A stretch of 64,000 nt of DNA, from the IMG/VR virus record IMGVR_UViG_3300029908_000008; one strand, 5' to 3'. The stretch is from an uncultured virus (IMG/VR IMGVR_UViG_3300029908_000008) (taxonomy: Duplodnaviria > Heunggongvirae > Uroviricota > Caudoviricetes). Positions 23,088-39,319 of the stretch are shown in pieces (the first letter of the stretch is position 1; every line of letters begins with the position of its first letter). A program made the position numbers and the translations under genes. The notes beneath the pieces are model-generated. The model did not search any database. It was not told the DNA's origin and saw only the letters and a list, made by a program, of their open reading frames with translations.

Positions 23088-23608
23088 TTATCAATATGCC
23101 TCCATTGTAATGTTCCTTGAATGGCAACATCATAGAATAATTTACCATTCAAATGATCTATTTCATGTTGAGCAACAACAGCAGGAAAACCCTCAAAACA
23201 ATATATATTATTTTTACCTTCTAGGTTCATTGCTTTTATTTGGATTTTATAACTTCTTTCTACATTTCCAAACAATCCCGGTACACTCATACAACCTTCA
23301 TCACAAAATTGTGAACCATCTGCATCAATTATTTCAGGATTTATTAGTAATTCGGGTGCAAAATTTTTAGCACCCACAATAATCATTCTTTTACTATATC
23401 CAACTTGTGGGGCTGACATACCAACAAACCCATAAGAATAATGTCTCCACAATTCATTACTAATTTCAAGTAATTCTTCGCGCGATTCGTTCGATATTAT
23501 GTCTGAAACTTTTCTTAAGATAGGATCTGGAATTTTAATTCCAGGATTGGATGCAGATGTGTGATAATACATCTTTAAAAATGGTTCTGGTATCTGTAGT
23601 TCTTTCAT
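23054..23608 (-). CDS. def: peptide deformylase
   Basis: GMSAPQVG, EGCMSVPG and QHEIDHLNG motifs. Confidence 0.95.
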   Translation of the reverse strand: MKELQIPEPFLKMYYHTSASNPGIKIPDPILRKVSDIISNESREELLEISNELWRHYSYGFVGMSAPQVGYSKRMIIVGAKNFAPELLINPEIIDADGSQFCDEGCMSVPGLFGNVERSYKIQIKAMNLEGKNNIYCFEGFPAVVAQHEIDHLNGKLFYDVAIQGTLQWRHIDKWKEYLKLEIL

Positions 23609-23838
23609 AATTTTAAATATTTCGGACAATCTTTTAACAACGAAACACAATAAAAATATTTACTTGGTAATTCATATATTACGCCGATTCTATATTCATT
23701 ATTCATAGGAACCTCTAATAATTCTAATGTAATTCTATCATTATCTATGTGATTTATTTTCGATTTCATACCAAAAAAATTCAACTGGGCATTTTTATTC
23801 CAATATACAATATCACCTATCTTAAAATTACTTTTCAT
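23605..23838 (-). CDS. CPEYLK-tail family small protein
   Basis: FKIGD...DCPKYLKL; near-identical to 30597 gene. Confidence 0.85.
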   Translation of the reverse strand: MKSNFKIGDIVYWNKNAQLNFFGMKSKINHIDNDRITLELLEVPMNNEYRIGVIYELPSKYFYCVSLLKDCPKYLKL

Positions 23839-24071
23839 GATTGTTTTAAATATTCTGGACAATCTTTTAACAATGAGACATAATGATAATATTTACTTAG
23901 CAATGCATATCTTTCGCTGAGTCTATTATTTTAATTCATAGGAACTTCTAATAATTCCACTGTCGTTCTATCATTATCTATATTAATTATTTTCGATTTC
24001 ATACCAAAAAAACTCAACGCGGCATTTTCATTCCAATATACAATATCACCTATCTTAAAATTTGTTTTCAT
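23835..24071 (-). pseudogene. CPEYLK-family paralogue with internal TAA
   Basis: MKTNFKIGDIVYW...EVPMN*...DCPEYLKQS. Confidence 0.8.
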
Positions 24072-24292
24072 GATTGTTTTAAATATTTCGGACAATTATT
24101 AATTGTATCAAATTCTTCTTCGTATATCAAAAAATCATACTTGTATATATTGTGACTATACTTGAGTTTTTTATTACAAAACTGTATTTTTATAGTTACA
24201 TCACTAATAAACAAAACTTTACATATCTCGCCAAGGGCATATGCCCACGCGGCTCCTTTAGTGCGCAAAATATCTCCTTCTTTAATTTTCAT
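24068..24292 (-). CDS. CPEYLK-tail family small protein
   Basis: IKEGD...NCPKYLKQS. Confidence 0.85.
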   Translation of the reverse strand: MKIKEGDILRTKGAAWAYALGEICKVLFISDVTIKIQFCNKKLKYSHNIYKYDFLIYEEEFDTINNCPKYLKQS

Positions 24293-24497
24293 TTTTTAAA
24301 TATTCTGGACAATTGCCCATTATCCTCATATATTTGTTAATCCATAAATAATCTGAATCATTAAGTACAAAGGAAGCACTGATTAAATTAAATTTACATA
24401 TATCGCATAATCCATCACAGTCACAAGAATAATAAAAATACCCCCAAAGATGCTTTGTAGCACATGTATTGCAAACTTTTATTTCATTTCCTTTCAT
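24282..24497 (-). CDS. Cys-rich domain carrying CPEYLK tail
   Basis: CNTC and CDIC pairs; ends NCPEYLK. Confidence 0.8.
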   Translation of the reverse strand: MKGNEIKVCNTCATKHLWGYFYYSCDCDGLCDICKFNLISASFVLNDSDYLWINKYMRIMGNCPEYLKNEN

Positions 24498-24507
24498 TAA
24501 CTTTTAT

Positions 24508-25185
24508 CTAAACTATTAAATACATAAATAATATACCTAAACTAAACAAAAAACAATTAGTAAATCTATTAACATTAGATTTATGACATTCTGGAACTAG
24601 TATCGACGCGCCGAGATATAAAAACATACCTGTAAAAATTGCAAGAATTTCGCTCATTAATATCTTGCTTGGGTTAATTAATAATGAAATACCCACACCT
24701 ATAAAGGGCATAATTGAATCAATTAATAACCATTTTAATTTATTATTGTTTACGATTGTTACAGCGTTAAAACCGTCAGCCAAATCATGAAAAATTATTC
24801 CACAACTAACAGCAATACCGATTGCAGGGTTTACCTTAAAAGTTAAACCTATCATTAATCCATCACATATTGAATGTGCGCAAAGTGCTAATACATTGCA
24901 ATAATTATGAAATTTATTATCACAATTATTTTCTGTTCTTTTTGATAAAGAAAACCAGTTGTTAATTATAAAATATAAACCAAAACCAATTGATATAAAC
25001 GGTAATATTTTTTTAAGATTATTAAGTTCTGCCGACTCTGGAAGAAGATCAAAAATTCCAACACCAACCACGCTACCAGCCGCGAAACTGGACAATAAAT
25101 TTGAGTATTTGGATAATTTAATTCCAAATAATCCTCCAATCATAGTTGTGAATGACGTGATTAGAATTAAAAAAAATAATTTCAT
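24508..25185 (-). CDS. ZIP-family metal transporter
   Basis: multi-TM; FAAG, DLLPE, HSICDG, HDLADG, LVPECH. Confidence 0.9.
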   Translation of the reverse strand: MKLFFLILITSFTTMIGGLFGIKLSKYSNLLSSFAAGSVVGVGIFDLLPESAELNNLKKILPFISIGFGLYFIINNWFSLSKRTENNCDNKFHNYCNVLALCAHSICDGLMIGLTFKVNPAIGIAVSCGIIFHDLADGFNAVTIVNNNKLKWLLIDSIMPFIGVGISLLINPSKILMSEILAIFTGMFLYLGASILVPECHKSNVNRFTNCFLFSLGILFMYLIV

Positions 25186-25188
25186 ATT

Positions 25189-25431
25189 TTATAAATACAG
25201 TGGCTTCTTACGTTTACTATTTATCACATAATGTTTAATAATTTCTGCACATTTCTGCACATCTGATTCAGAACCAAGCCAGGCCGATTCTGAATAAAGA
25301 CGATAATAAGCACAGTGTCCAAAACCTTTAGGTTCAAAAGTCACACACATTCTGCCTACAAAAAGAATAAGAGGCCCATCATAATTGTATTTTATTTGTA
25401 AATTATCTAAAATAGTTTTCAATTCATCCAC
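25189..25431 (-). CDS. small protein with KPLYL tail
   Basis: GTG start after promoter motif; ends KKPLYL. Confidence 0.7.
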   Translation of the reverse strand: MDELKTILDNLQIKYNYDGPLILFVGRMCVTFEPKGFGHCAYYRLYSESAWLGSESDVQKCAEIIKHYVINSKRKKPLYL

Positions 25432-25460
25432 GATTATTATACTTTTTATTTTTAATGTGA
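25432..25460 (-). promoter_or_regulatory. conserved phage promoter motif
   Basis: TTAAAAATAAAAAGTATAAT-AATC-GTG. Confidence 0.7.
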
Positions 25461-25504
25461 ATTTCTTGTCAGGTACTTATTATAATAAGTATTAAATTAT
25501 AAAT

Positions 25505-26125
25505 ATGCCATATACACAACATAAAGGAATAGATGCTAGTCATTATGATGGAAATCCAGAAGTAGACATGCATCTCGCTAAAAAATCCGGAATAGATTTT
25601 TGGTTTGAAAAAGCATCTGAGGGGCTTGTAAAAGACCCTACATTCGCCAATCGACAACCTAGAATTAGGGCTACATTTCCAATTAGGGGTTGGTATCATT
25701 TTTGTCATTGTGATGGAATTGATCCAAAATTACAAGGCATTTTTTTTGCTGATACAATCGGTAAACTTCAAGATCATGAATACGCGGCGTTTGATATAGA
25801 ACAAGGATGGGGATCACTTACGGGCGAAGAAGGTATTCAGTATCTTCTAAAATTAATCAGTGCTTTTAAATTTAAAACAGGATCAAAAGATAATCAAATT
25901 ATTATTTATGGATCATTAGGCTGGCTTCGAGGACAATTTGGTGAATCACTATCAAAACTGACTAATTGGCATTTATGGGCCGCGCGGTATAATAGCACCT
26001 TGGGTGACACTAGTCCATGGTCAGCGGCATTAATTTGGCAAAATTCTGAAACAGGAAACATTAATGGTGTTAATAATAAAAATGCTGATACTGATATTTG
26101 GCTAGATGGTCATTGGCCATTATGA
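25505..26125 (+). CDS. GH25 lysozyme (muramidase, candidate endolysin)
   Basis: GIDASHY, KASEG, GWYHF, DIE, LWAARY, IWQ, DTD motifs. Confidence 0.9.
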   Translation: MPYTQHKGIDASHYDGNPEVDMHLAKKSGIDFWFEKASEGLVKDPTFANRQPRIRATFPIRGWYHFCHCDGIDPKLQGIFFADTIGKLQDHEYAAFDIEQGWGSLTGEEGIQYLLKLISAFKFKTGSKDNQIIIYGSLGWLRGQFGESLSKLTNWHLWAARYNSTLGDTSPWSAALIWQNSETGNINGVNNKNADTDIWLDGHWPL

Positions 26126-26310
26126 TATTTGAGATAGTTTTCAAGATAGTCTGGTATATTGATTGTGTGATGCCTAGGTATTACAAAATGCCTAACATTA
26201 TCAATTAATGGAAAACTCAATTTGTTTTTTTGTGGATTTGAAGAATGATTAGGATTATTAAAAATAATCGGACCATTATGACTTCCTGTGGATATAGAGA
26301 TTATTATCAT
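26110..26310 (-). CDS. small protein with IPDYL tail
   Basis: IPDYLE near C-terminus. Confidence 0.5.
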   Translation of the reverse strand: MIIISISTGSHNGPIIFNNPNHSSNPQKNKLSFPLIDNVRHFVIPRHHTINIPDYLENYLKYHNGQ

Positions 26311-26516
26311 TTTAAATATTTTGGACAATTATTAAATAAGCGAATTTTTGATTGATGAATACAATAAGGAACATTGTTATCTATATTAATCATATATATA
26401 TAATGACTGCTATACTCCGCATCACGTTTTTGAACTCTCATTAAAAGGCCTTTGTAAATTACAAGATCACCTTCTTGAAATTTTAATCTTTTTCCTTTAA
26501 ATTTTTGTTTTTTCAT
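26307..26516 (-). CDS. CPEYLK-tail family small protein
   Basis: FQEGD...NCPKYLK. Confidence 0.85.
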   Translation of the reverse strand: MKKQKFKGKRLKFQEGDLVIYKGLLMRVQKRDAEYSSHYIYMINIDNNVPYCIHQSKIRLFNNCPKYLK

Positions 26517-26700
26517 GTTTTAAATATTCTGGATAATGACAATGAAACCGTGGTTTAGGTAATTCGTCAATCAATAAAAGTTTTGGATAACAAATCGCAT
26601 TTGAAATTGGAGCAACCATAGCATCTGCTAAAGATTTTCTTCCCTCATATGAATCTAACGCCTGGATTATAATATTCTGCTTTATAATATCATGTTTCAC
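26497..26700 (-). CDS. small protein with YPEYLK tail; body resembles a capsid-protein N-terminal fragment
   Basis: ALDSYEGRKSLADAMVAPI...KLLLIDELP. Confidence 0.6.
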   Translation of the reverse strand: MKHDIIKQNIIIQALDSYEGRKSLADAMVAPISNAICYPKLLLIDELPKPRFHCHYPEYLKHEKTKI

Positions 26701-26707
26701 AAATTAT

Positions 26708-27106
26708 TTATACATTTTTAATAATTTGTGAAGAACTTCTAATTTTATCTCCTAACCCATCAACAATTTTTATATTTAGCATGTCGCAAACTTCTTTTTC
26801 AGGTATTTCTCCGGCGAAACGGTCGCCACCTTTTGCAAAAATATTTGGAACAATAATTTTCAATGTATTACAACAACTTTTATCTTGGTCAATTGCAAGT
26901 ACTACCTCATCAACCATTTTTAATGATGAAATAATCCTTACACGATCTTCCTCGCACATTAATGATTTACTTTTCTTTAATGATGCTTGATAATCATTAT
27001 TTACAATCACAATTAAATAATCACCTAGTAATTTTGCTTTTTCAAAACACTCAATATGCCCCACATGTAACGGGTCATAGTAACCGCTAGTGCAAACTTT
27101 AATCAT
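26708..27106 (-). CDS. cytidylyltransferase-like nucleotidyltransferase
   Basis: GYYDPLHVGH, KGGD and RSSS motifs. Confidence 0.9.
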   Translation of the reverse strand: MIKVCTSGYYDPLHVGHIECFEKAKLLGDYLIVIVNNDYQASLKKSKSLMCEEDRVRIISSLKMVDEVVLAIDQDKSCCNTLKIIVPNIFAKGGDRFAGEIPEKEVCDMLNIKIVDGLGDKIRSSSQIIKNV

Positions 27107-27642
27107 AATCTTATCGTAATAGAGAAATTAACACTATTATCATTTATTGATACTGAATTAAACAATAATTTAGGAATAGACATAATTATATTGCCTTTAA
27201 ACTCATAACTATTAATTTTATATTTTTTTAGTTCAGACATAATTAGACTATTGATTTTAGACCGGATAAATCCAAAAAATGATAAACCTAATATTGTAGA
27301 ATCTAGAATATTAATTTGAATGTTATTATCTATCGCTGATAAACCTATCTTAATTTGCGCTACTGATTTTTTAATAATTATTGAATTATCAATAATAGAT
27401 ATTGGCAAAAATGAAGGAATATCAGATTGACATAAATTAAGATACATCTATTTCTATTGTAAGATGATCCTTTTCCATGGCTTTGTTCATGAAAATGTGA
27501 GAGCCTTGGAACACCACACCCTTCAACATACTTTTCGCAACTTCCAAATTAAGTCCTGGAACTAACTGTTCTAATAAAATAATTGAATCTGTAATTTCAG
27601 GGTCCGTGATGCTAATTTTCGCCATACATTAATTATACAATT

Positions 27643-28224
27643 TTATTGTTCTAATAATTTTGCTACAGAATTATCAATATCTGATTTAAAAGGCTCTTTT
27701 CCTAGTGATATTTCTGGCACCCAACTGTTCATTTTAACAGCAACTTTGGTCCCGTCAGTAGCGGCAGTCATATAAGATGCATAATATTCCACAAGGTAAT
27801 AAAATGTCCGATTATTTAAATCAAATTCTCTATCTAAAATCATACCTTTGGTTTCAAAGGGCAATACTCCAAACCCATTTTTGTGAGTTACTAGTATTCC
27901 TACATCAAACATTGGATTTGGTCTAGAAGTGTTTTCTCTAATAAGTGCTTTTGCATACTCTTCAAAACTATATTTGTCCACATTGTCTGCAAGTACATAA
28001 TATTCTGGCTCATTTAATTGCTGTGCCACTTGTGAATAAGCCTGTTTAATCATGCTTAATAGAGCCTGTTGATCTGGAGAATCATTCCCATGATTTCTCC
28101 TGCTCGTAGGTGCAAAAATAGAATATAAGTGGCCATTTAGTTCAACCCTATATCCTAATGATATTAATTGGAATATTAAATCACTTAAACTGCTTGCATT
28201 ATTATTGTTAAATATTTTTTTCAT
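27643..28224 (-). CDS. hypothetical protein
   Basis: 193-aa ORF. Confidence 0.75.
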   Translation of the reverse strand: MKKIFNNNNASSLSDLIFQLISLGYRVELNGHLYSIFAPTSRRNHGNDSPDQQALLSMIKQAYSQVAQQLNEPEYYVLADNVDKYSFEEYAKALIRENTSRPNPMFDVGILVTHKNGFGVLPFETKGMILDREFDLNNRTFYYLVEYYASYMTAATDGTKVAVKMNSWVPEISLGKEPFKSDIDNSVAKLLEQ

Positions 28225-28464
28225 AATTTATTTTGTTTTTATTGACCATTTATCAGGGATTCCTGACCATGTGTGGGAACCATTAAATGACAAGTCTGTA
28301 GGAATTAATTTTACCACACGAACAATATCAATACTATATTTATCTTTCCAATGATTTAGTGTACGCTCATCTTCTGCAATCTCAAAAACAATCCATTCTT
28401 GATTTTGAAAACCTCCATGCACCGCATCTCCAATCTTTAGTTCTATCCATCTTTCATTAGTCAT

Positions 28465-28493
28465 ACCATATTATATTTTTTATTTTTATTGAG
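28465..28493 (-). promoter_or_regulatory. conserved phage promoter motif
   Basis: CAATAAAAATAAAAAATATAAT-ATGGT-ATG. Confidence 0.7.
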
Positions 28494-28503
28494 AATTTTT
28501 AAA

Positions 28504-29256
28504 TTAAGGCAATTGACTAACCAAACTCACATTGTATTTTCTTCTAGGAGCCAGAGGTCCTACAGCCGTAATTACTGTCATGGACAAATTGTACAGTTCT
28601 ACAAACGAATTTCCTACGGAATTCTCACTACCAATGTATACCCAAGATTGTGTTGCGAATTGTATTGTATTGACATTATAAGTTGGTAATGGGGAAATTA
28701 ACCATGTAAAAGATGAATATAATGAATTATTAACTAAAGTGTTTGGAACATTATAAAGATTATTTAAAGGCCCTGTCGGGCCTTTAACATATGTTTCAAT
28801 ACCTAATAAAGTTACCGGTGTAACGTTTACTGGTGGTGTCCCATCAAATAGACCAACCCTTACGGGATAAACCGGTGCCCAAGTGCCATTAAAATTCATA
28901 TTACATATCAGATATACACCTGAATCTCCAGTAGTATAAGCATTGAAACTAAAATATATACCTGTTATATATTCATTATATGGAATTACAGGGCCAGTCG
29001 GATTAGACGCTAAAATTGGCCAAGAAATCAAATCTCTAACATTGCCTCCGCCACCAGAACCATCATTTGGACAATCAATAAAAGTAGGACCAGTATTAGA
29101 AGGCCCAGTGGCTGAAAGCCAGCCTGAAGGATAGATCCAGTCAGTATAACCAACAGCACCTACACCTACGGGAACGGTAGCGCCTGTGAATCCAGAAGAT
29201 GAAGGTAAATTCTTTACTTCATTAGCATTTTGAAATGTGTAGGTGTAAGTGCCCAT
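28504..29256 (-). CDS. probable virion structural protein (TGP-rich)
   Basis: G/T/P/N-rich, low charge, repeated TGP. Confidence 0.55.
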   Translation of the reverse strand: MGTYTYTFQNANEVKNLPSSSGFTGATVPVGVGAVGYTDWIYPSGWLSATGPSNTGPTFIDCPNDGSGGGGNVRDLISWPILASNPTGPVIPYNEYITGIYFSFNAYTTGDSGVYLICNMNFNGTWAPVYPVRVGLFDGTPPVNVTPVTLLGIETYVKGPTGPLNNLYNVPNTLVNNSLYSSFTWLISPLPTYNVNTIQFATQSWVYIGSENSVGNSFVELYNLSMTVITAVGPLAPRRKYNVSLVSQLP

Positions 29257-29669
29257 TTTTATTATATTTCTATTTTATGACTGTTTCTACCTCATCACTA
29301 AATTCCAGAGTTCCCCCAAACGATTATCTAAGGAGGATTTCATGAATAAATCTGCGCGGTCTTTCACAGGTTCATTTTCATATGGGTAGTTCATCACATT
29401 TAAAATAAACAATAAATGTTCTTCAGTTAAATCCGTAACACACATTAACAATTCTCTTTTTTGTTCCACAGTGAGAAATTCAGGAATAGAAGATTGATAA
29501 ATTTTTGCTTCTGATTCTAAATATTCTGTTAATTCTGGAAAATATTGTTGATCTTTGGGCAGAGCCTTATTTTCAGCCATTAATTTTTGTAAATCATCAT
29601 GATTACACATGATTAGTGATTGTTCAAGAATTTTTTTTAATAACTTAACTGTTAGTTTCATTGAAAATA

Positions 29670-30329
29670 TTATACATTTAAATTCATTTTTAAATGATAA
29701 TCATACAAAGCAATACTTGCCGCGCAACTTACATTAATAGATCTATTTGACGCAAACGATGAAATAGCAACAATATCATCTGACATTTCTAAAAATTCAG
29801 AACAAATCCCTAGACCTTCATTACCCACAATGATTAAAATTCGCTTATTATAGTCCCATTTATAATTATTTATTGAAGTACTACCTTCACAATTTTCTAG
29901 ACAAACAATTTTATCAAAATCATTTTTTATTAAATTAAAATCGTCAAGATCTTTCACATGATTTAAATTCAAATGGTTATGGGCGTTAATTGCACCTTTC
30001 CTATTATATTTTTTATCACCATAAATATAAACCTTCTTGCATCCAAAATTAAGTGAAGATCTTAAAATAACAGCCAAATTTAAATCTGAAACTAAATTAC
30101 AAGTCATTAAAAATAAATTAGGAAACCTTCGTGATTCCAAATCTGCAAGAATAACTTCTTCTGATAGATGCTTATATTGATCAATAATTGCACGATTATC
30201 CGCACATTCAAAGCCTGAATCTCTGCATCTTTTTTGAAACTGCAATAGAGATTCACCAATCTCCATCTTTAATATTTCGGCAGAGGGGCGATGATCTGAT
30301 TCTGAAAATTTATATCCACGATAACTCAT
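29670..30329 (-). CDS. SpoU/TrmH-family RNA methyltransferase
   Basis: NLAVILRS, GNEGLGI and SINVSCAASI motifs. Confidence 0.9.
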   Translation of the reverse strand: MSYRGYKFSESDHRPSAEILKMEIGESLLQFQKRCRDSGFECADNRAIIDQYKHLSEEVILADLESRRFPNLFLMTCNLVSDLNLAVILRSSLNFGCKKVYIYGDKKYNRKGAINAHNHLNLNHVKDLDDFNLIKNDFDKIVCLENCEGSTSINNYKWDYNKRILIIVGNEGLGICSEFLEMSDDIVAISSFASNRSINVSCAASIALYDYHLKMNLNV

Positions 30330-30351
30330 ATTACAATTATGATTTCTATTT

Positions 30352-30600
30352 TTATTGAGAAATTTTTAAATAATCTGGACAATCTTTTTTAAAGAACTTA
30401 TTAAAAAGATGAACGCGGTCACGTAATAATATTTGTTTAACATCGCCTGATTTATAATTTAAAAAATCATCAATTAACATTACACTAATTACGTTAAGTG
30501 AAATTTTAATAATCCTCATTCTTTTTCTTTTATTTTTTTCATAATAGATAGGTGATGTAAAAATAATATCACCTATCTTTAAATTTTCTATTTTAATCAT
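30352..30600 (-). CDS. CPEYLK-tail family small protein
   Basis: LKIGD...DCPDYLK. Confidence 0.85.
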   Translation of the reverse strand: MIKIENLKIGDIIFTSPIYYEKNKRKRMRIIKISLNVISVMLIDDFLNYKSGDVKQILLRDRVHLFNKFFKKDCPDYLKISQ

Positions 30601-30824
30601 AATTTTAAATATTTCGGACAATTTCTCAACAACGAAATACATTTTGTACTTTCCAACTTATATATTACGCCGATTCTATATTCATTATTCATAGGAACCT
30701 CTAATAATTCTAATGTAATTCTGTCATTATCTATATGATTTATTTTCGATTTCATACCAAAAAAATTCAACTGGGCATTTTTATTCCAATATACAATATC
30801 ACCTATCTTAAAATTTGTTTTCAT
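30597..30824 (-). CDS. CPEYLK-tail family small protein
   Basis: near-identical to 23605 gene. Confidence 0.85.
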   Translation of the reverse strand: MKTNFKIGDIVYWNKNAQLNFFGMKSKINHIDNDRITLELLEVPMNNEYRIGVIYKLESTKCISLLRNCPKYLKL

Positions 30825-31036
30825 GATTGTTTTAAATATTTCGGACAATTCCCCACTAATCTCCAGTATTTTAAAAAATATAAACTTGTAATAGCGCGTA
30901 CTGAAACATTTTCTGGATCATCAAACCTTTGTGTTTTGAACAATTGTTCATCTACATAAATAACTTTAATTATAACAGGCACAGTAAAATCATGAGTTGC
31001 AAAAAGATCACCAATTTTTATTTTATCTAGTTTCAT
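30821..31036 (-). CDS. CPEYLK-tail family small protein
   Basis: IKIGD...NCPKYLKQS. Confidence 0.85.
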   Translation of the reverse strand: MKLDKIKIGDLFATHDFTVPVIIKVIYVDEQLFKTQRFDDPENVSVRAITSLYFLKYWRLVGNCPKYLKQS

Positions 31037-31269
31037 TTTAAATATTCTGAACAATTAAGTAAATTTATGTCATAAATTGTTTTTCAATCTTTTAATTGCC
31101 GCTTCTTCACCTAACATTGGTGGAATTTTTGCTTTAATTTCTGGTTTAGAAAAAAATATTTGTTGCGCATTAATAGAAAATGCAAAATCTGGATGATTTA
31201 TTTTAAAAAGAAAATCTAATCTCTCTAATAATTTTATTTCTTCTATAGTGAAAATAAGTTGTTTCATTA

Positions 31270-31497
31270 TTATTTAAGATACTCTGGAATTTTATTGACT
31301 GTTGATAGTATTAGATTATCAAAATACCATTCTAAATTCAGAGAATTGAATGTTTCTCCAGGTTTATAATGTAAATATGAGTCAATTAATTTTAAAGAAA
31401 TACTAACGTCATCTATTTTTATAATTTCCAATCTCGGGCAAGTCCATCCAAATTTTGGTACTTTAACAATATCACCTATCTTAAATTTATTTTTCAT
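31270..31497 (-). CDS. CPEYLK-tail family small protein
   Basis: FKIGD...IPEYLK. Confidence 0.85.
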   Translation of the reverse strand: MKNKFKIGDIVKVPKFGWTCPRLEIIKIDDVSISLKLIDSYLHYKPGETFNSLNLEWYFDNLILSTVNKIPEYLK

Positions 31498-31703
31498 GAT
31501 TGTTTTAAATATTCTGGACAATTAATTAAAAATACTTCTAGATAAGTTCTATATTGATCTATTAATGTTAATGATCCGACTTTAATATCTAGATTGACAA
31601 ATGGTTCATGAATATAGTTTATTTTTACGTAGTGTAATGCACCGCACCACATAGTTTTTGCTATATCACATGGTTTTAATTCTTTTAACTGGAACAAATT
31701 CAT
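31494..31703 (-). CDS. CPEYLK-tail family small protein
   Basis: NCPEYLKQS tail. Confidence 0.85.
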   Translation of the reverse strand: MNLFQLKELKPCDIAKTMWCGALHYVKINYIHEPFVNLDIKVGSLTLIDQYRTYLEVFLINCPEYLKQS

Positions 31704-31942
31704 AGCAAATATTTTGGACTTTTTCTTGCTTCTCGAAGCACAACGTATTTACAATGAGTTTTAAAAATATCACCAACTCTATGTGCAGTTCTGTTATTTT
31801 CTGGCAACTCTAAAAATTTAACTGTAAGCCAATCCTTTTGTTCATGTCTAATAAATTTAACGTGTAGATCAGACCATTCCTCACATTGGTTCCATCTAAT
31901 TATATGGCCATATTTTAATTGTTTTAATTGTTCTGTAGTCAT
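31700..31942 (-). CDS. CPEYLK-tail family small protein
   Basis: SPKYLL tail. Confidence 0.8.
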   Translation of the reverse strand: MTTEQLKQLKYGHIIRWNQCEEWSDLHVKFIRHEQKDWLTVKFLELPENNRTAHRVGDIFKTHCKYVVLREARKSPKYLL

Positions 31943-32160
31943 TTTTTTAAATATTTAGGATGTTTTGATATTTTTCTAAAATATTTAGCATAGTATTTAC
32001 CCTGATAGCGGTGCCAGTATACATCGTTTATCACTGGGGATGTCAAAAACTCAACTGTCAAATAATTACTATCATGCCACAAAACTTTTACTTTGTGACC
32101 GCACCAAATCGACTCTGACATTCGCCAACATATAATTTCTCCGATTTTAAAGTTATGCAA
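31939..32160 (-). CDS. CPEYLK-tail family small protein
   Basis: FKIGE...HPKYLKK. Confidence 0.85.
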   Translation of the reverse strand: MHNFKIGEIICWRMSESIWCGHKVKVLWHDSNYLTVEFLTSPVINDVYWHRYQGKYYAKYFRKISKHPKYLKK

Positions 32161-32728
32161 TTTTAATATCCAGAGATTTATATTTTTTCCATAATTCTAC
32201 ATTTAATTGAGAATCAAAATCACTTGTATGTGTGATAGACTCGTCTACTTCAATACCCCAGAACCCACATAATTTTTGTAAATTTAATTCTTGATCCTCA
32301 GGTATTAAACCTTTGAATTGTAGTAATTTACTAATTGAAATTAAATCAATAACTCGCCTGTCTACATATTGATACCAAGTATTTTTATCAATTAGGTAAT
32401 AAAAAAGATTGTCTAAATCAAAACCACAATTCTGACCCAGCACAGTAAGTTTGCCATACATCGAATAATTTTTATAAATAAAAGATGCAACATTATTTTT
32501 CATCTCAGAATATTTTCTAGCATTTAGATCATGTTCCACAATATTTATTCTATTCACTTTCATTGATTCAGCCGATAGGTGATAAACTCCATCATCTGGT
32601 TTTAATTTTAAATTTAATGTGTCAATAATTTTACTATTTTCATCTACAACACTCATTGTGAATGTCAATAGGCTAAATTTTGCATAATCTAAACCACCGG
32701 TTTCTGAATCAATTGATAATAAATACAT
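32153..32728 (-). CDS. DEDDh 3'-5' exonuclease (DnaQ-like)
   Basis: IDSETGG, GQNCGFD and HTSDFD motifs. Confidence 0.9.
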   Translation of the reverse strand: MYLLSIDSETGGLDYAKFSLLTFTMSVVDENSKIIDTLNLKLKPDDGVYHLSAESMKVNRINIVEHDLNARKYSEMKNNVASFIYKNYSMYGKLTVLGQNCGFDLDNLFYYLIDKNTWYQYVDRRVIDLISISKLLQFKGLIPEDQELNLQKLCGFWGIEVDESITHTSDFDSQLNVELWKKYKSLDIKIA

Positions 32729-32732
32729 ATTT

Positions 32733-33122
32733 TTATGTTCTCTCTAGTAATGCGCGGGTAATTACCTGTCTACAAATCGGATCTATGTGATGTTGGGTGG
32801 CTAGTATGGCTCTAAGATGGTCTATTTCAAGATCTTTTAGTAAACTATATTTCACAGGCTCTTTTCCTGACTTGCCTTTGGAACCCCATAATAATTTATT
32901 ATATATCGTATCTTCATCAGCATTATCTTCAATATTCATACTAACAATAGATGGATGATTGACAAAATTTGTGCGACAATAATCTAATCCACCATCAATA
33001 AAAAAATAAGAATCACCTTTATTGACTTTACTACCATCTAATTTAAAGGCTACAAAATCATGTCTATGAGTTGATATCCTGTATTCTCCACATATTGGTA
33101 AAAAAACTGCATTTTGTATCAT
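32733..33122 (-). CDS. phage hypothetical protein
   Basis: HRHDF...IDGGLDY...WGSKGK pattern. Confidence 0.7.
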   Translation of the reverse strand: MIQNAVFLPICGEYRISTHRHDFVAFKLDGSKVNKGDSYFFIDGGLDYCRTNFVNHPSIVSMNIEDNADEDTIYNKLLWGSKGKSGKEPVKYSLLKDLEIDHLRAILATQHHIDPICRQVITRALLERT

Positions 33123-33465
33123 ATCTAATCAATCTCTTTTAATTTTTCTATTTCATTTTGACAATCAAGTATTTGATTATATTGAGATAGTTCTTTGTCA
33201 ATATTACTCACAAAATATTTTCTGTTTTTAAACACTTCATTTTCGAATATTTCCAACATAATTTAAATCAAAATCTCCTTTATTTTTTTCCAATTTCTCT
33301 ACATTCTTATTTATTGCTATAGAATCTTTCACTGCATTACCAAAGATTAGTGCTATCAGCAACACTAATACAATGGTAATAAATTTCGCTACTCTTACTG
33401 ACTTTTTAAACAATTTTTCAAAATAATTCATACATTATTATATGTTTTATTTTTGTTGATAATTT

Positions 33466-33663
33466 TTAAAAATCATCTTTCTTCATTCTATTTCTTAGCG
33501 CGTCTAGGCGTTTTCTTTTTGATGGTTTTAAATATTCTGATCTATCTTTAATTTCTTGTATAATCCCAGAATTATAAACCTGTGTATTGAAGCGTTTTAA
33601 TGCGCTATCAATTGTTTCATCATGTTTTAAAGTCACCTTAGCATGAATTGCTCGTTTACCCAT
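33466..33663 (-). CDS. rpsU: ribosomal protein bS21
   Basis: ETIDSALKRF...GIIQEIKDRSEYLKPSKRKR. Confidence 0.85.
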   Translation of the reverse strand: MGKRAIHAKVTLKHDETIDSALKRFNTQVYNSGIIQEIKDRSEYLKPSKRKRLDALRNRMKKDDF

Positions 33664-33770
33664 ATTATATTGTCTAACCTCTATTCTATATTTTTATAAT
33701 AAAATCTTTATTATAAATTAATTACCTATTATTTAAAGGATTATATTACATTGCTTGAGAATAAAAACCC

Positions 33771-34286
33771 ATGAATTCAAAAATAATTCAAAAAATTATC
33801 AATGCCGCGAATATTTCAGATGTAAATGGCTTTAAATTTGAGGCTGATTACCTCACCAAACTCGCACAAGATTTAATTCATGAAGATTTTGGAAATAATC
33901 AGGACCCTGATATTTTTGAATTAGGCGAAGATAACCACGTATTGAAAGAAAACTCAGATTTTTACATTGAAGCATCTACTTTATTGTTTGATATCGCAAA
34001 ACGTTCTGGATTAGAATTAGTGAATTTTTCTTATAATCTCAAATTTAATAAAGATTCACTCATGCATCTTAAAACAAAACTGGAAACACTAAAACAGATA
34101 ATTAGATTAAATCTTCATCCAAGAGAATCTGGATTATCTGAAACGTTTCATGCTTTGGGAGAAAATTCTATATTTAATTTCTCCACAAGAGAAATACACG
34201 GTTTCGACATAACTAGAGAGCATCGCTTAGAATTAATACGATTAATTAATGAATTCCTTGATCTAATTAATTATAAATCAAACTAA
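33771..34286 (+). CDS. hypothetical protein with shared N-terminal leader (candidate internal virion protein)
   Basis: IINAANISDVNGFKFEADYLTKLAQ. Confidence 0.6.
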   Translation: MNSKIIQKIINAANISDVNGFKFEADYLTKLAQDLIHEDFGNNQDPDIFELGEDNHVLKENSDFYIEASTLLFDIAKRSGLELVNFSYNLKFNKDSLMHLKTKLETLKQIIRLNLHPRESGLSETFHALGENSIFNFSTREIHGFDITREHRLELIRLINEFLDLINYKSN

Positions 34287-35384
34287 AACAGGTGTTTTTC
34301 TTGGGCGACCTTTCGGACGTTTAATTACATCAACAATAGTTAATTCAGTAACGGCCTTTTTTGGGCGTCCTCGGGCCTTTTTAATTTTAGGTTCTGATGA
34401 CTCTGTTTCAATAACTTTATCTTTTGCGGGCCTGCCTCTTTTATTAATTGATTTACCTGGCTTTTTAAATTTAGTAAGTTTTGGCACGGCATGAAATGTG
34501 GTTCGATCTACGCCATGACAAGCAAAATTTATATATTGTTTAAGATAAAGATTCTGTAGATTATCAAATTCCGATGGATCTAAAGCATATAATTGGCTAG
34601 GATTTAGATTTGATAATCCATTCAAAAATGCCAGAGTTTCATCTAAGTCTTCTTGACCCCATTGCATAAATGAGACTTGAGTCCTTCCTACTGGATCTAG
34701 AAATCCACATAATTTAGTATCATAAAATGCCCATCGGTCTTGTGGTTCTAAAATAGATTCAATTGGAATCTGCTTTAATACGACAATATTGTTTTTATCA
34801 ATTTTCTTTGGTTCATAGCCATTTTTCTTTCTGAATTCAGACGACAAATTTTGCCATTCCATTACTAAATCCATATTGAATTTAATTCTATATTTGGAGA
34901 TAAATGCTTCTGATAATTTTTGAAAAACTGGCAACATATTAAAATCTAAATGATTAATATATTTTTCTAATACATCTTCAGATAATCTTTGATACCTTAA
35001 AAGATCTTTCCAATTCATTCTATCTCCATATTTCATAATCACAGATTCTGGAAGATATGAAACTTTTGACATTTTATCAAAATTAAGTTTGTCTTGAAAT
35101 TCTTCTACGATTGACAATTCTGCCACATTTTTATTTGTGGAAAATAATTCAAAATCTACGTATTGTTTATATTTTTTAATTGACTGTGCGCCGAGGCCGT
35201 AATAATTAATCACAAAATTAACCTTATTTTTGATTAATTCATAATTAGTTGGCCAGATCTTGATTGTGTTTTCAATATAGTTTAATGGTGTACTCATGAA
35301 TGTATTATACTTTTTATTTTTGATGATATTTTTTAAGATATTTTGGGCATAAAGGCGGTTTGTATTTTTTACATAAACGTTCAA
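34278..35384 (-). CDS. repeat protein with three C-terminal AT-hooks
   Basis: QxLSE-type repeats; RGRPAK, RGRPKK, KGRPRK. Confidence 0.7.
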   Translation of the reverse strand: MNVYVKNTNRLYAQNILKNIIKNKKYNTFMSTPLNYIENTIKIWPTNYELIKNKVNFVINYYGLGAQSIKKYKQYVDFELFSTNKNVAELSIVEEFQDKLNFDKMSKVSYLPESVIMKYGDRMNWKDLLRYQRLSEDVLEKYINHLDFNMLPVFQKLSEAFISKYRIKFNMDLVMEWQNLSSEFRKKNGYEPKKIDKNNIVVLKQIPIESILEPQDRWAFYDTKLCGFLDPVGRTQVSFMQWGQEDLDETLAFLNGLSNLNPSQLYALDPSEFDNLQNLYLKQYINFACHGVDRTTFHAVPKLTKFKKPGKSINKRGRPAKDKVIETESSEPKIKKARGRPKKAVTELTIVDVIKRPKGRPRKTPVLV

Positions 35385-36476
35385 ATTCCATTGCTCTTAT
35401 CGTGTTATCGCCAATACAGGGCCATGGTACTCATATCCATAACAAATATCATATACCATATCAACTCTAAAGCGATTACCGTATCTATCTACTAGAGCAT
35501 CTCCAACTTTAAATTTCAATAAACCACCTTTGGCTTAGTAATAGGTTCTGTAAGTGGCATCTTTTCAATTGCTAATCCAAGTTTTTTATATTTTTCTGGA
35601 TCAATATTTAAATGACGAGCCATACCTACGCTCTCGGTGATAAAATCATGAATATGACCTGATAAAAATTTCCCATATTCATTAATTAGATAAACATCTC
35701 CATCTTTATCTCTGGCGCAAGTTTCATTAGGATACATGCCCAACATTAACCCTAAAATTTTATTTAACTTAGGTGTGCAAAAGCCCGAATTAAGAAGCAA
35801 ATCAGCAGTTTTTTTAATTTCTATTTCCATTTTTAATCACAATTACAATCCTTTTTTCTAAATAATTTAAATTTTTTCCTATTGTTTGAAATAATATTAT
35901 ATAATTTCTCAACAATCCTCAAACAATATTTATTCTTTGAAATATATTTGGCTAAATTCCATGGGAAATTCAATAAAGAGAAAATTTTAATCCAGCCCTC
36001 ATGAGACTTATAGCATTCTCCATTATAAAAAAACATAAAAGAATCAGATGATAATATTTCTCTTTTAAATTCTTTTTTAATTCCAAATAACATACTATCT
36101 ATGTTTTTATTCTTGAGTAATTTAGAGGCGAATTGTGTAGCGTTAATACATAATTCGCATGTGTTATCATATAAAAAAACAGATTTGTTATTTTGAGATA
36201 TTGTCTTATATTTTTCTAAATTGAAATCCATAATAATATAATGAAGGTATTATTATATTATACAGATAAATTAACTCTGTATTCTTCAGCGCTGAAGATT
36301 AAATTAAAAAAAGGAGGCGCTGTTAGAAAAATGATAAAAATAATTGAAGAGATTTTTTCTCAAGTATTCAGAACAATTATTCCAGAAATAAACGATAAAA
36401 ATTATTGTGAAATTTTAGGTGAAGATTATAAATTTTTTAATATTTTTTCAAAAAAATAAATTTTAAAACCTCATTG

Positions 36477-36665
36477 TTAATTAAGATAATGAGGTTTTCC
36501 TTTTGAAACATTTAAGTGACTCACACTAATATAGCCATATTCATAATCCTCTCCATAAAATCCTAAAGTTATTCTATTATCTATTTTATTTAAAATAGCA
36601 GTTTTCCAACCATTATAATAAACTATATCACCTATTTTTAAATTCTCAAATTGTTTTATTGTCAT
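36477..36665 (-). CDS. CPEYLK-tail family small protein
   Basis: LKIGD...KPHYLN. Confidence 0.85.
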   Translation of the reverse strand: MTIKQFENLKIGDIVYYNGWKTAILNKIDNRITLGFYGEDYEYGYISVSHLNVSKGKPHYLN

Positions 36666-36895
36666 ATTGTTTTTAAATATTCTGGACAATTATTTATTAA
36701 TGCAAAACTTTTTAAAAATTTAATTGGAAATATTAAATTAACATATTCCGCTTTATAAAATATTATTGAAGGTGTGAGAGTTAAAGTAAAATCACTATCA
36801 TTAATGTTTATAATTATAGCACGTGCAAACACAAAATGTTCATTCCATGTGCCGTCATTCTTAAAATATACTTTGTCAAACAATTTAAAATTCAT
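36662..36895 (-). CDS. CPEYLK-tail family small protein
   Basis: FKLFD...NCPEYLK. Confidence 0.85.
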   Translation of the reverse strand: MNFKLFDKVYFKNDGTWNEHFVFARAIIININDSDFTLTLTPSIIFYKAEYVNLIFPIKFLKSFALINNCPEYLKTI

Positions 36896-36940
36896 TATAA
36901 AATAAAGGTCCTATATTTAAAAATATTCAATTAATAATTT

Positions 36941-37468
36941 GTGGCGACAATTCCTGTACAGTATTTCATACGGCAAATTACACCAATTGATAATGCTGTG
37001 TGTGCTGTTCGATATGATCTCCAGACCACGTTCCCTGGGCCAGTTGAACTTAGTACAGGTCCATATATTTATAGAGAAGCCAAAACTTCGATGATATCCT
37101 TAGCATTATTATATGCTAATACCGATGTTACGCAAACTTTATATGTGAATGGAACATTAAATTCTAATATTTCTAATAATTTTCAAAATGCTAATATGCA
37201 AGAATTAATCATGTTCTATAATAGGGCATATCAATATGCTGAGAATTATTTTGCCAATGTACAATATAATAATAACCTTGTTAAGGGCTATACCGGTCCA
37301 TCTAATTTTACTGGTACTGGCGTTGTCACAGGAAGTTACAACATCACAACTCAACTTGTTACAGGTAACCAACTATACATACCAGATGCATATCAATATT
37401 TTAATTCAGATTATTATGATTGGCAATGGGGTGGTTCAGTAGATGAAGATTATTATTGGGCATATTAA
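36941..37468 (+). CDS. probable structural protein
   Basis: T/G/N/Y-rich, TGP motifs. Confidence 0.55.
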   Translation: MATIPVQYFIRQITPIDNAVCAVRYDLQTTFPGPVELSTGPYIYREAKTSMISLALLYANTDVTQTLYVNGTLNSNISNNFQNANMQELIMFYNRAYQYAENYFANVQYNNNLVKGYTGPSNFTGTGVVTGSYNITTQLVTGNQLYIPDAYQYFNSDYYDWQWGGSVDEDYYWAY

Positions 37469-37797
37469 ACAATCCGCGATTTTTTAATTCCTCTGCTATT
37501 TCCAATGTAGAAAAATCAGAAATTTTAGATTGAAAATTGAGTCTAAAATCATCTTCCATTAAATCAATTAATCCTCTTTTTTTAACCTCATCAATTAAAT
37601 CATAATCATAAATAGAGTCTTTCAAAAAATTATCAATTTTAATTAATTTTAAATCTTCTACCACATTTTCCGGAGCATTATTTAAATAATTTTCTAGATT
37701 ATTTAAACGCACCTTAGTGATGCGTTCTAAGTCAAGAATCAAATCAAAAACAGTACTATTCCAAGCCATGAATTAATATAATTAAAATTAAGGTATA

Positions 37798-38610
37798 TTA
37801 TTTCATAGTTTTAAAAACATTACTAATTCGCTCTTCTAATGTGTCGCCTTTAATTTCTTTAGCCATTTCATATGCATCTTTTTTATTATAATTTTTATAT
37901 TTCATTAATACATTTGCTACGTCGTCCACTAATTTTTGTTCTTTTAAATCTATTGTAGATTCTGTTTTTGTTTCATGATTATTAATATCAGAATCATATT
38001 GTTTGAAGACCCAATCAATTGCAGAACCGCAGGTTTTTGCCTTGCATTTTCTAACATAAGGAATTATTTCATTATCACTAAAATATCTTAATAAAAATCT
38101 GATTGCATAATTGTTTTTGTCCAAATTGTTAAACGGCATATTTCTATATTTTTGCTCTTCAATATCTCTGGTTTTAATACATTCATCAATTATCTCAGAT
38201 TGTATGTCTGAATTACATTTATTAATATAATAATCTGCTTCAGAATCTGTAAACCAGAGGCTTGTAAGAAATTTCTTAGCGTCCAACACATCTTCTTTTG
38301 ATTTAAATCTATTTTTAATATTTAATGCTAGATCTGGAATATTATAACCCATTTCATCTAATGGGTCAGTGTACATAGGAGGATCTTTATTTATTTTAGA
38401 AGTTTTATTTTTTTCTTTTAAATCTTTACTTTTAGTATTTGTAAGTTCTTTTTTAATATTAGATGAATGAGTCATATATGCTATTAAGGAAATAAAACCT
38501 ATCATATCCACTAAAATTTTTAAATTAAAAGAAGTTATAAAATTGTTCAATCCTACAATGGCTAATAAGCCCATCATTATATTTTGAAATTTCTGCCATG
38601 TGTGAATCAT
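37798..38610 (-). CDS. membrane-anchored hypothetical protein
   Basis: two N-terminal hydrophobic segments. Confidence 0.7.
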   Translation of the reverse strand: MIHTWQKFQNIMMGLLAIVGLNNFITSFNLKILVDMIGFISLIAYMTHSSNIKKELTNTKSKDLKEKNKTSKINKDPPMYTDPLDEMGYNIPDLALNIKNRFKSKEDVLDAKKFLTSLWFTDSEADYYINKCNSDIQSEIIDECIKTRDIEEQKYRNMPFNNLDKNNYAIRFLLRYFSDNEIIPYVRKCKAKTCGSAIDWVFKQYDSDINNHETKTESTIDLKEQKLVDDVANVLMKYKNYNKKDAYEMAKEIKGDTLEERISNVFKTMK

Positions 38611-38612
38611 AT

Positions 38613-38852
38613 CTAATTATAGTTTTTATTTTTATTGGTATTTTTTAAATATTCTGGACAATTATTTATTAAATAAGAATCATAATTAACTTCTGATTCG
38701 GTAAACATATAATATCCAGCATTAGTCAGTAATTTTGTTTTCACGGTAGAAATGCCTATTGAACAAACCTCAAAAATACTTGTTACCTGTGAATAGTAAG
38801 TGAGTCTAATGTGATCTCCAATCTTAATGTTATTATTATGCCTATCTCTCAT
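38613..38852 (-). CDS. CPEYLK-tail family small protein
   Basis: IKIGD...NCPEYLK. Confidence 0.85.
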   Translation of the reverse strand: MRDRHNNNIKIGDHIRLTYYSQVTSIFEVCSIGISTVKTKLLTNAGYYMFTESEVNYDSYLINNCPEYLKNTNKNKNYN

Positions 38853-38854
38853 TA

Positions 38855-39037
38855 TTATTTTATATAATTCGGCTTATTGTTTAAATGTCTGCATTCTTCT
38901 AAATAAAAACACATTGTATGCTCTTCTATATTGATAATTTTATTTACAGAATCATAATCTTTAACTGTGCCAATAAAATTATTTATCATAATGATACGGG
39001 AATTAATTACAATTTTTTGGCCTTTTTTAAATTTCAT
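38855..39037 (-). CDS. CPEYLK-tail family small protein
   Basis: FKKGQ...KPNYIK. Confidence 0.8.
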   Translation of the reverse strand: MKFKKGQKIVINSRIIMINNFIGTVKDYDSVNKIINIEEHTMCFYLEECRHLNNKPNYIK

Positions 39038-39285
39038 TATCTTAAATATTTTGGAATATTTTTTATCATTCTCATATATTTTAAATTGCTAATATTATAA
39101 ATAATAGTATAATTTTTATCATATGTTAGAGTATTTATTCTTATAGGATCGATTAATTCAACTGTATATGTATGGGAATAGGAATTAAATTCGACGATTG
39201 TACATCTTGCAAGTCTGAACTCTTTAGGCCATACTTGACTGTTATCATCAAAGTAAATTTGATCGCCAATTTTATAATTAAACAT
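39037..39285 (-). CDS. CPEYLK-tail family small protein
   Basis: YKIGD...IPKYLR. Confidence 0.85.
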   Translation of the reverse strand: MFNYKIGDQIYFDDNSQVWPKEFRLARCTIVEFNSYSHTYTVELIDPIRINTLTYDKNYTIIYNISNLKYMRMIKNIPKYLR

Positions 39286-39319
39286 AAAACATTATACTAA
39301 TTATTTTTATTGTGAATTT

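Follow-up and report, generated by a model that had tools for sequence, protein, structure and literature searches.

Phage genomes are mosaic, and a long-standing idea holds that short boundary sequences steer recombination to harmless places. Integrons have attC sites, imperfect non-coding palindromes that adopt a folded single-stranded form and require the IntI integrase. In large DNA viruses, 'genomic accordions' are exemplified by the amplification of K3L in poxviruses and by the MGF families of ASFV. The start-associated sequences of Cluster K mycobacteriophages, reportedly described by Pope and colleagues in 2011, are 13-bp non-coding elements that include a ribosome-binding site. PeSL cassettes of T4-type phages are said to have been treated by Comeau and colleagues in 2014.

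PeSLs are the best documented case of a boundary sequence and are intergenic. About 50 promoter-terminator elements per genome, conserved over ∼100 bp, occupy intergenic positions and flank ORFans (Arbiol et al. 2010, PMC2839356). PeSL recombination accounts for the phi1/RB49 indels and yields mini-circles; the proposal is that homologous exchange between PeSL copies releases circles and puts genes back at harmless places (PMC2839356).

The locus analyzed here is read as nearer to the PeSL elements of T4-type phages than to integrons. It lies in a window of 64,000 nucleotides (the whole stretch of DNA that was analyzed; IMG/VR record IMGVR_UViG_3300029908_000008), in which many small genes of a single orientation end with the same short coding sequence. 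Dozens of short conserved copies at gene boundaries, a plastic ORFan-rich region and a large phage of the lytic type are shared with the PeSL system. In contrast to the PeSL, which combines a sigma-70 promoter with a terminator stem-loop, the boundary sequence of the window is coding and in a fixed frame; the tail is translated, has no stem-loop and is separate from the promoter box. The array, the flagged copy of the repeat and the copies closest to it are located as follows.

483–54579, minus strand: array of small genes in a single orientation, many of them tail-bearing
31494–31523, minus strand: flagged 30-mer with the ATGA that starts the next gene; encodes N-C-P-E-Y-L-K-Q-S-stop of the 69-aa gene 31494–31703
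31270–31497, minus strand: gene downstream of the flagged repeat, with its ATG inside the repeat; begins MKNKFKIGD and has its own degenerate tail, KIPEYLK
42311–42340, minus strand: identical 30-mer, tail of the 41-aa ORF 42311–42436
42735–42764, minus strand: identical 30-mer, tail of the 77-aa gene 42735–42968, whose protein was modelled
42965–42994, minus strand: 30-mer copy with one mismatch, tail of gene 42965–43204

The repeat is real and lies far above the chance level. The 30-mer AATTGTCCAGAATATTTAAAACAATCATGA is found with zero mismatches at 31494–31523, 42311–42340 and 42735–42764, all on the minus strand, in agreement with the identity reported in a preliminary description of this DNA. 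Of the near-identical copies listed there, those at 23835 and 42965 (one mismatch) and at 24068 and 30821 (two mismatches) are present as given; the copy placed at 9849 begins at 9846 (two mismatches), and those placed at 1130 (1127–1156) and 15470 (15470–15499) carry four mismatches each. That list was too short, and the strand is the minus strand, the quoted letters being the reverse complement of the plus strand. Eight matches with at most three mismatches compare with 0.00 expected from 100 shuffles, and 31 matches, on the minus strand only, are obtained with at most seven. The exact 18-mer TGTCCAGAATATTTAAAA is present 19 times on the minus strand and never on the plus strand, and the 14-nt core CCAGAATATTTAAA, with at most two mismatches, 60 times on the minus strand versus twice on the plus strand.

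What the repeat encodes, in frame, is a short C-terminal tail common to ∼60 small genes. All but two of the 60 minus-strand core copies read as P-E-Y-L-K in frame with the longest upstream open stretch, and the consensus of the seven-residue tail is (N/D)-C-P-(E/K)-Y-L-K-(Q). Using a simple greedy caller (ORFs of at least 50 aa) and the pattern xP[EKDNRQ]Y[LFM] at most 13 residues from the stop, the tail was assigned to 59 of 147 minus-strand ORFs, or ∼40% of the genes in the 54-kb region. A strict rule yields 45 tail copies, in 44 of which Cys precedes Pro (Leu in the remaining one). The loosest rule, P[EKDNRQ]Y[LFM] at most 13 residues from the stop with at least 22 open codons upstream, yields 70 copies, at least two of which (w33853 and w26110) resemble chance matches. 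A heme-regulatory motif, which the Cys-Pro pair of the tail resembles, was considered and dropped. An intein-like Asn-Cys junction was likewise set aside, since Asn is not found in every tail and the domain would be too small. A full-text literature search found no paper that mentions the peptide CPEYLK.

The stop codon follows the tail Lys by 1–12 codons in nearly all copies; because this distance varies, the stop and the ATG lie outside the conserved unit. The flagged copy itself does span the tail codons, the stop and the ATG of the following gene (NCPEYLKQS-stop, with an ATGA overlap), as had been described. Among the 70 loosest-rule copies, the ATG of the next ORF overlaps the stop in 33, lies 0–10 nt behind it in 14 and 11–60 nt behind it in 10, and is not found within 60 nt in 13. 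Most genes of the window lack a Shine-Dalgarno sequence. A scan for sigma-70 promoters and terminators detected 176 promoter-like sites versus 147 expected in AT-rich DNA and is hence uninformative; a separate promoter-like box repeat, CAAYAAAAATAAAAANTATAAT, is present in 23 copies in the window. In several tail copies a promoter-like box comes right after the tail and is translated as an odd extension, for example KKPNKNKNYNKL. The Cluster K start-associated sequences likewise form a short repeat just upstream of many starts in one phage genome; unlike the tail repeat, they are not a shared peptide, and no cassette exchange is known to have been described for them. The inverted ends of the 30-mer that had been pointed out, ATTGT and ACAAT, are present, but the hairpin that they might form is not above shuffles: when six 50-nt copies were folded as RNA, the minimum free energies were −0.9 to −3.6 kcal/mol and the z-scores +1.22 to −1.03 (200 shuffles), and attC-like stability above shuffles was not found in any of the six.

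Codon usage predicts more variation at the synonymous sites of the tail than is observed, which is not the case for an N-terminal motif in the same genes. In the 45 strict copies, Pro is encoded 35 times by CCA, 10 times by CCG and never by CCT, for which 14.8 occurrences are expected (0 of 200,000 simulations as extreme). Leu is encoded by TTA in 37 of 44 cases (23.2 expected, p = 3.5e-5) and Tyr by TAT in 45 of 45 (38.3 expected, p = 7e-4); because the copies share descent and are not independent, these codon p-values overstate the significance. The Asn, Cys, Glu, Lys and Gln codons of the tail show the same lean more weakly. As a control, the N-terminal motif [FYIL]K[IV]GD, present in 31 copies in the same genes, uses Ile (13 ATT, 11 ATA, 2 ATC), Gly (15 GGA, 11 GGT, 5 GGC) and Lys codons (22 AAA, 9 AAG) at the frequencies of the window (p 0.08–0.5), and the paralogues are therefore old enough for their synonymous sites to be randomised. 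Where Glu or Lys follows a Pro outside the tail, that Pro is encoded by CCT in 25 of 96 cases (26%). The last 10 codons of 88 called non-family genes contain CCT for 43% of Pro and TTA for 57% of Leu; with no codon shift at these gene ends, there is no general gene-end effect. CCG tracks the Lys variant of the tail (8 CCG to 10 CCA with Lys and 3 to 37 with Glu; Fisher p = 0.002). The synonymous variants CCA/CCG and GAA/GAG noted earlier are indeed seen among the copies, and the residues C, P, Y and L are kept through the synonymous changes TGT/TGC, CCA/CCG and TTA/TTG/CTG/CTT.

The bodies of the tail-bearing genes, mostly 60–100 aa in length, are far more divergent than their ends. In an alignment of 28 members only C, P and Y are invariant, and identity to the first member is 19–40%; the N-terminus of many members follows M-x-x-(F/Y)-K-I-G-D-x-V. 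An AlphaFold2 model of the 42735–42968 protein (77 aa; 28-row alignment; pLDDT 84.2) contains five strands (residues 10–13, 20–27, 32–41, 49–60 and 64–66) and a terminal helix (residues 72–76) that corresponds to the PEYLK part, with a pLDDT of 64 in the last block. A Foldseek search of the PDB with the model retrieved L24, Spt5/NusG KOW and Tudor structures (TM 0.5–0.6, E 0.009 or weaker), and structural matches in the ESM Atlas agree with the KOW/Tudor-like picture. Most bodies are predicted to be KOW/Tudor-like five-strand β-barrels with a short terminal helix. The five predicted strands and the N-terminal K-x-G-D-x-V strand are features in common with the KOW, Tudor and SH3-like barrels (L24, NusG/Spt5 KOW, PHF1 Tudor), none of which has a C-terminal CPEYLK helix. 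None of 16 family proteins reached a Pfam gathering score, the best sub-threshold matches being Tudor_2 (16.4 bits, cut-off 31.4) and SH3_15 (13.8 bits, cut-off 24), and the PHROG matches of 16 family proteins were at E 0.002 or weaker, none at threshold.

The tail is found on more than one kind of body. With an HMM of the barrel alone, 45 of 64 tail-bearing ORFs are matched at E < 0.01, and 28 of these 45 had served to train it. Among the 19 ORFs without a barrel-profile match are a Cys-rich protein of 71 aa, others of 87, 93, 101 and 173 aa, and some short ORFs. At another locus, L015, the tail terminates a 112-aa membrane-like protein with hydrophobic helices; this protein and the profile-negative bodies indicate that the tail is not tied to one body. 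The paralogue families of poxviruses and ASFV differ in this respect, as whole genes are alike in them, whereas here bodies that are 19–40% identical share a near-identical 3' end of ∼20 nt that is also attached to other body types.

A profile search of 1.84 billion representatives returned 630 proteins at E ≤0.001, and the top matches are long multi-repeat SH3-like proteins that cover profile positions 3–42 only. Full-length tail-bearing proteins among the best 150 matches belong to the window, are variants of window proteins, lie on contigs of the same metagenome or are one of four others (P0006/P0156, P0111, P0115 and P0136); P0115 is recorded on 42 contigs, up to 47,305 nt long, and P0156 on 40. 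The tails of relatives on other contigs read CPKYLKQ, CPEYLRVK, CPEYMKELL and CPEYLKQ. A locus search based on P0156 led to one IMG/VR contig (L024), where the homologue has neither a tail nor an array around it, and a search for related loci based on P0115 gave no match. No match was obtained by tblastn with one family member against 50,697 phage records. DNA-pattern searches detected no array in viral contigs (six single matches, each inside an unrelated ORF) or in genome contigs (three single matches, two contigs sharing one unrelated ORF). In metagenome contigs, the same type of search identified 14 loci, comprising six on the window's own contig (100% identity, one 99.99%), six on other contigs of the same metagenome and two that are unrelated. 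The six same-metagenome contigs contribute 38 further tail-bearing ORFs and also encode EF-Ts, NusG, PARP, NAMPT, Thg1 and DNA ligase.

The array is read as a hyperplastic region of a large uncultivated bacteriophage. A 93-kb metagenome contig contains a stretch identical to the window, whose proteins are recorded on a 162,305-nt contig and whose G+C content varies between 24 and 36%. Pfam domains in the window include T4-type RNA ligases 1 and 2, PNKP, a dNMP kinase, peptide deformylase, an RF-1 domain protein, GH25 lysozyme, a sigma-70-like factor, an S26 peptidase, a SpoU methylase, a ZIP transporter and a MoxR-like ATPase with a VWA partner. Among phage records, those closest to the window come from a 595-kb uncultured phage and from phiRSL1-like jumbo phages (37–45% identity over 40% of the ATPase), and a megablast search with 49000–57500 gave no match. 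No tyrosine or serine recombinase or integrase was detected by Pfam in 61 window ORFs of at least 100 aa, which bears out the earlier remark that no recombinase is visible in the window, and no recombinase domain was detected by Pfam in 31 ORFs of the six related loci. TAG recoding, a possibility prompted by a suppressor tRNA, was rejected: coverage was 0.821 versus 0.824, with no sign of recoding in the window.

Self-comparison of the window yields 46 pairs of similar segments, 13 of which are at least 70 nt long. The segments that correspond to whole genes are the following.

23605–23863, minus strand: cassette, 90.7% identical to 30597–30849; one end at its own tail/ATGA, the other within the tail of the upstream gene
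30597–30849, minus strand: second copy of the 23605–23863 cassette, 7 kb away and with different neighbours, from the self-comparison
23844–24096, minus strand: tandem copy of 23611–23863 with a period of 233 nt, 86% identical, tail to tail
506–757, minus strand: cassette, 83.8% identical to 4702–4949, both ends at most 4 nt from tail blocks
4702–4949, minus strand: second copy of the 506–757 cassette, without an in-frame ATG

Every recent whole-gene duplication, as well as a near-identical cassette found in two contexts, ends at tail copies. In the three whole-gene duplications (the 506–757, 23605–23863 and 23611–23863 pairs), all ends are located at most 6 nt from tail blocks. A weaker pair (42504–42765 and 42713–42995, 70% identical) also ends a few nt from tail blocks, and the alignment of 23809–24097 with 30565–30850 overruns the tail by 35 nt, reaching the conserved beginning of the gene that follows. 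The two-context cassette comes from two related loci, L009 (2167–2380) and L015 (3960–4173), which are 98.6% identical over 214 nt. This similarity extends from 5 nt ahead of one tail core to just behind the next tail, and nothing else is alike between L009 and L015 outside the shared cassette. For each arrangement, the proteins are recorded on 3–5 contigs of several sources (maximum lengths 52,806 and 26,525 nt), and neither context is therefore a one-off misassembly. L009 and L015 may be two places in one genome or two phages. As in the poxvirus and ASFV arrays, where paralogues expand and contract by unequal recombination, decaying copies stand beside intact ones: 23844–24096 is frame-broken, with the gene start and the tail now in different frames, and 4702–4949 is the copy that lacks an in-frame start.

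Variants in protein databases resemble products of exchange between two tail copies of the window. The copies concerned are the tails of genes A and B, which lie 5.4 kb from each other and have 33 nt in common, exactly repeated in direct orientation.

36670–36702, minus strand: 33-nt exact repeat at the tail of gene A (36662–36895, ...NNCPEYLK-TI-stop), identical to 42101–42133
42101–42133, minus strand: 33-nt repeat at the tail of gene B (42066–42314, ...NNCPEYLK-INEKIKNEDLE-stop), identical to 36670–36702

The database protein P0168 consists of the gene A body followed by INEKIKNEDLE, and P0029 of the gene B body followed by TI. Judged from their sequences, the two would be both of the junctions expected from exchange between the gene A and gene B repeats, the B-to-A junction (P0029) corresponding to the expected deletion form and the A-to-B junction (P0168) to the expected circle or tandem-duplication form; each is recorded on one short contig (1,078 nt for P0029 and 2,325 nt for P0168), where low coverage together with a 33-nt repeat could lead to a false join in the assembly, and the two-residue end TI of P0029 is weak evidence alone. 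A further variant, P0077, differs from the window protein 15931–16173 only after NCPEYL. Contigs of four sequencing runs were also aligned to 23500–43300. Many joints are located at tail copies, but every joint has a side of 20–26 nt; since these sides have about the length of the repeat, the contig joints show repeats, not recombination. In the PeSL system, insertions, deletions and replacements end at the motif; the candidates for such events here are three window duplications, one two-contig cassette and two junction variants. The PeSL circles were shown by experiment; P0168, which would be the junction of a circle or a tandem duplication, comes from a contig.

General recombination at the tail homology, by which whole genes are duplicated, lost and moved, is the most likely explanation of the array, and the coding tail repeat probably serves as the homology. 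All tail copies are direct repeats. Of the 70 copies, 32 match some other copy exactly over 20 nt or more, and there are 216 exact-identity pairs at 20 nt or more, 40 at 25 nt or more and 11 at 30 nt or more. Identities of 20–33 nt lie near the minimum length used by homologous recombination systems. Such direct-orientation identity would be a substrate for a phage or host recombinase, and unequal or ectopic exchange between copies would duplicate, delete or move whole genes. Because the copies share a frame and precede their own stop/start junction, the products would retain a complete tail as well as their coupling to the gene that follows. The nucleotides of the core could in turn be kept alike by repeated exchange or by selection favouring it. 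The earlier suggestion that exchange duplicates, removes and re-contexts whole genes finds support in the three duplications, the L009/L015 cassette and the junction variants. It had been stated that the suggestion would fail if array order were stable among relatives, if breakpoints were not enriched in the repeat and if AT-biased codon choice fully explained the nucleotide conservation. The second and third of these do not apply, because the breakpoints of the three duplications and of the 214-nt cassette sit at tail copies and because the Pro, Leu and Tyr counts, set against the N-terminal control, place the conservation above codon bias.

The repeat might instead be purely a protein motif of a paralogous family whose DNA has no role, its uniform codons reflecting descent and codon preference and the tails merely marking gene ends. 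The single frame of 58 of 60 core copies, the survival of C, P, Y and L through synonymous changes and the retention of the tail in relatives on other contigs would all follow from it. Neighbouring copies, moreover, are not homogenised: adjacent pairs have a mean Hamming distance of 10.25 versus 10.37 for random pairs (p = 0.32) and, being no more alike, give no sign of local gene conversion. Since the tails mark the ends of family genes, selection for intact genes alone would also enrich surviving duplication ends there. Against a pure protein motif stands the restriction at synonymous positions in the tail, which exceeds what codon usage gives, whereas the N-terminal motif of these genes stays at window usage; the bodies are only 19–40% identical, which marks the copies as old. 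Nor does a protein motif suit the attachment of the tail to the 19 of 64 bodies without a barrel match and to the membrane-like protein of L015, or a 98.6% identical cassette that ends exactly at tails in two contexts. On balance, we regard a motif acting in the protein only as rather unlikely. Constraint on the bases could come instead from a cis-acting RNA or DNA signal within the coding sequence, either an A/U-rich unstructured region for re-initiation or ribosome loading or the site of an RNA-processing or DNA-binding factor. A/U-ending codons are favoured at Tyr, Leu, Lys, Asn and Gln, the next start overlaps or lies 0–10 nt from the stop of the tail gene in 47 of 70 copies, and few window genes have a Shine-Dalgarno sequence on which to rely. 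Five of the six folded copies are less structured than the shuffle mean (z +0.37 to +1.22), and the link between CCG and Lys (p = 0.002) hints at constraint on bases rather than residues. The same CCG enrichment is not an A/U preference, however, and an RNA signal needs no constant frame; it would also have to act over a tail-to-stop distance of 1–12 codons, in 13 of 70 copies with no ORF start within 60 nt, and the last 10 codons of the 88 non-family genes show no codon shift. A cis-acting signal is accordingly considered quite improbable.

The preliminary description had likened the array to integron cassettes. In an integron-like system, the repeat would be an attC-like site for a site-specific recombinase encoded elsewhere in the genome. 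The array does resemble an integron in consisting of single-gene units of one orientation, each bounded by a recurring site, and in having cassette-like homology that ends at the repeat. Homology with such ends is also the outcome of homologous recombination between direct repeats. Unlike attC, the site is part of a reading frame, the same one in 58 of 60 copies; it forms no stable hairpin in the copies folded, and its core of ∼18–33 nt is below the known length range of attC sites; no integrase or recombinase domain was found in the 61 window ORFs or in the 31 ORFs of the six related loci. The likeness to integrons does not hold on these points, and site-specific recombination of this kind is extremely improbable.

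Recombination at tail homology leaves room for a function of the tail peptide. Such a function is proposed because C, P, Y and L persist despite synonymous substitutions and recur in distant relatives; it is the least certain part of our reading, and the peptide may be a helix that caps the barrel or a shared docking tag. Both roles might be combined in a dual use, in which the tail would be a C-terminal address or docking tag on at least 100 small phage effectors and, at the same time, an in-frame DNA recombination linker that makes a self-shuffling library of early proteins. The near-identity of the tails would then ensure that any exchange between two genes yields an intact, tagged and translationally coupled product, and the tail would be a coding counterpart of PeSLs and attC sites without a dedicated recombinase. 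We offer this extended form tentatively and hold it to be doubtful.

If exchange at the tails is true, a translated peptide tail would double as the homology by which a very large family of small proteins is built up and reshuffled. It would also provide a concrete mechanism for the growth and turnover of the ORFan regions of huge phages. The tail peptide itself is a handle on what ∼60 small proteins share, be it a partner, a location or their turnover.

A second repeat, CAAYAAAAATAAAAANTATAAT, is found in the window in 23 minus-strand copies at ≤3 mismatches, against 0.4 expected, and its copies are located in the gaps that separate gene groups. Example copies at this threshold are as follows.

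28470–28491, minus strand, copy of CAAYAAAAATAAAAANTATAAT
20129–20150, minus strand, copy of CAAYAAAAATAAAAANTATAAT
38616–38637, minus strand, copy of CAAYAAAAATAAAAANTATAAT
53319–53340, minus strand, copy of CAAYAAAAATAAAAANTATAAT
63843–63864, minus strand, copy of CAAYAAAAATAAAAANTATAAT

The repeat contains TATAAT with an A-rich box upstream and, by this appearance, looks like the phage's own promoter. Because the first ATG lies only 5–6 nt past TATAAT, the sequence suggests that the first genes behind the repeat are leaderless. In several places (e.g. 20136–20185 and 38623–38672), the repeat directly adjoins a copy of the tail, the C-terminal coding repeat of about 60 small minus-strand genes. 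Among the 114 window genes without a preceding tail, most lack an upstream Shine–Dalgarno sequence, and many starts overlap the stop of the previous gene. The few genes with a Shine–Dalgarno sequence include those preceded by AAGGAGG (ahead of 59851) and AAGGAG (ahead of 46725).

Within the tail, the rare proline codon CCG is far more common in the Lys variant (CCGAAA; 8 of 18 copies) than in the Glu variant (3 of 40 copies; Fisher p=0.002, window). From the codons, it looks as if one G is retained in CC[AG][GA]AA as though required. Two neighboring paralogues (17130–17324 and 17341–17538) carry degenerate tails that both lack the cysteine (KPKYLK and IPKYLK). They are 77% identical across 113 nt, and the matching stretches (17157–17269 and 17356–17459) lie within the gene bodies.

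Two contigs of the same metagenome, L015 and L016, share their first 270 nt (L015:1–270 and L016:1–269; 98.5% identity), and their point of divergence does not coincide with a copy of the tail. The common segment is the end of an ORF with a Cys-x-x-Cys motif, for whose 72 residues Pfam returned nothing; it may be the terminal part of a repeated mobile gene where the assemblies were interrupted. The start of a third contig aligns with the window's left edge (L009:1–142 and window 83–214; 90% identity and a 10-nt insertion), and past this match the contig is unrelated to the window. This is a hint of either a repeated segment or a second, related phage.

A tRNA gene was identified by ARAGORN, which labels it Pyl, and by the Rfam tRNA model (56.8 bits).

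361–434, minus strand, tRNA gene with anticodon CTA

This anticodon reads the amber codon. Of the stop codons, TAG is used least often (by 12 of the 146 minus-strand ORFs called in the window), and the window genes were not longer with TAG read as sense (coverage of 0.821 vs 0.824). The window and contigs of the same metagenome also encode the following proteins.

Window 20712–21056, RF-1 domain protein
Window 23057–23608, peptide deformylase
Window 49355–49918, sigma-70-like factor
L010:1835–2587, EF-Ts
L009:4595–5083, NusG
L016:6274–7557, WGR-PARP protein
L019:1710–2567, Thg1
L014:7206–8828, NAMPT

This gene set is of the translation and host-takeover type that is typical of very large phages.
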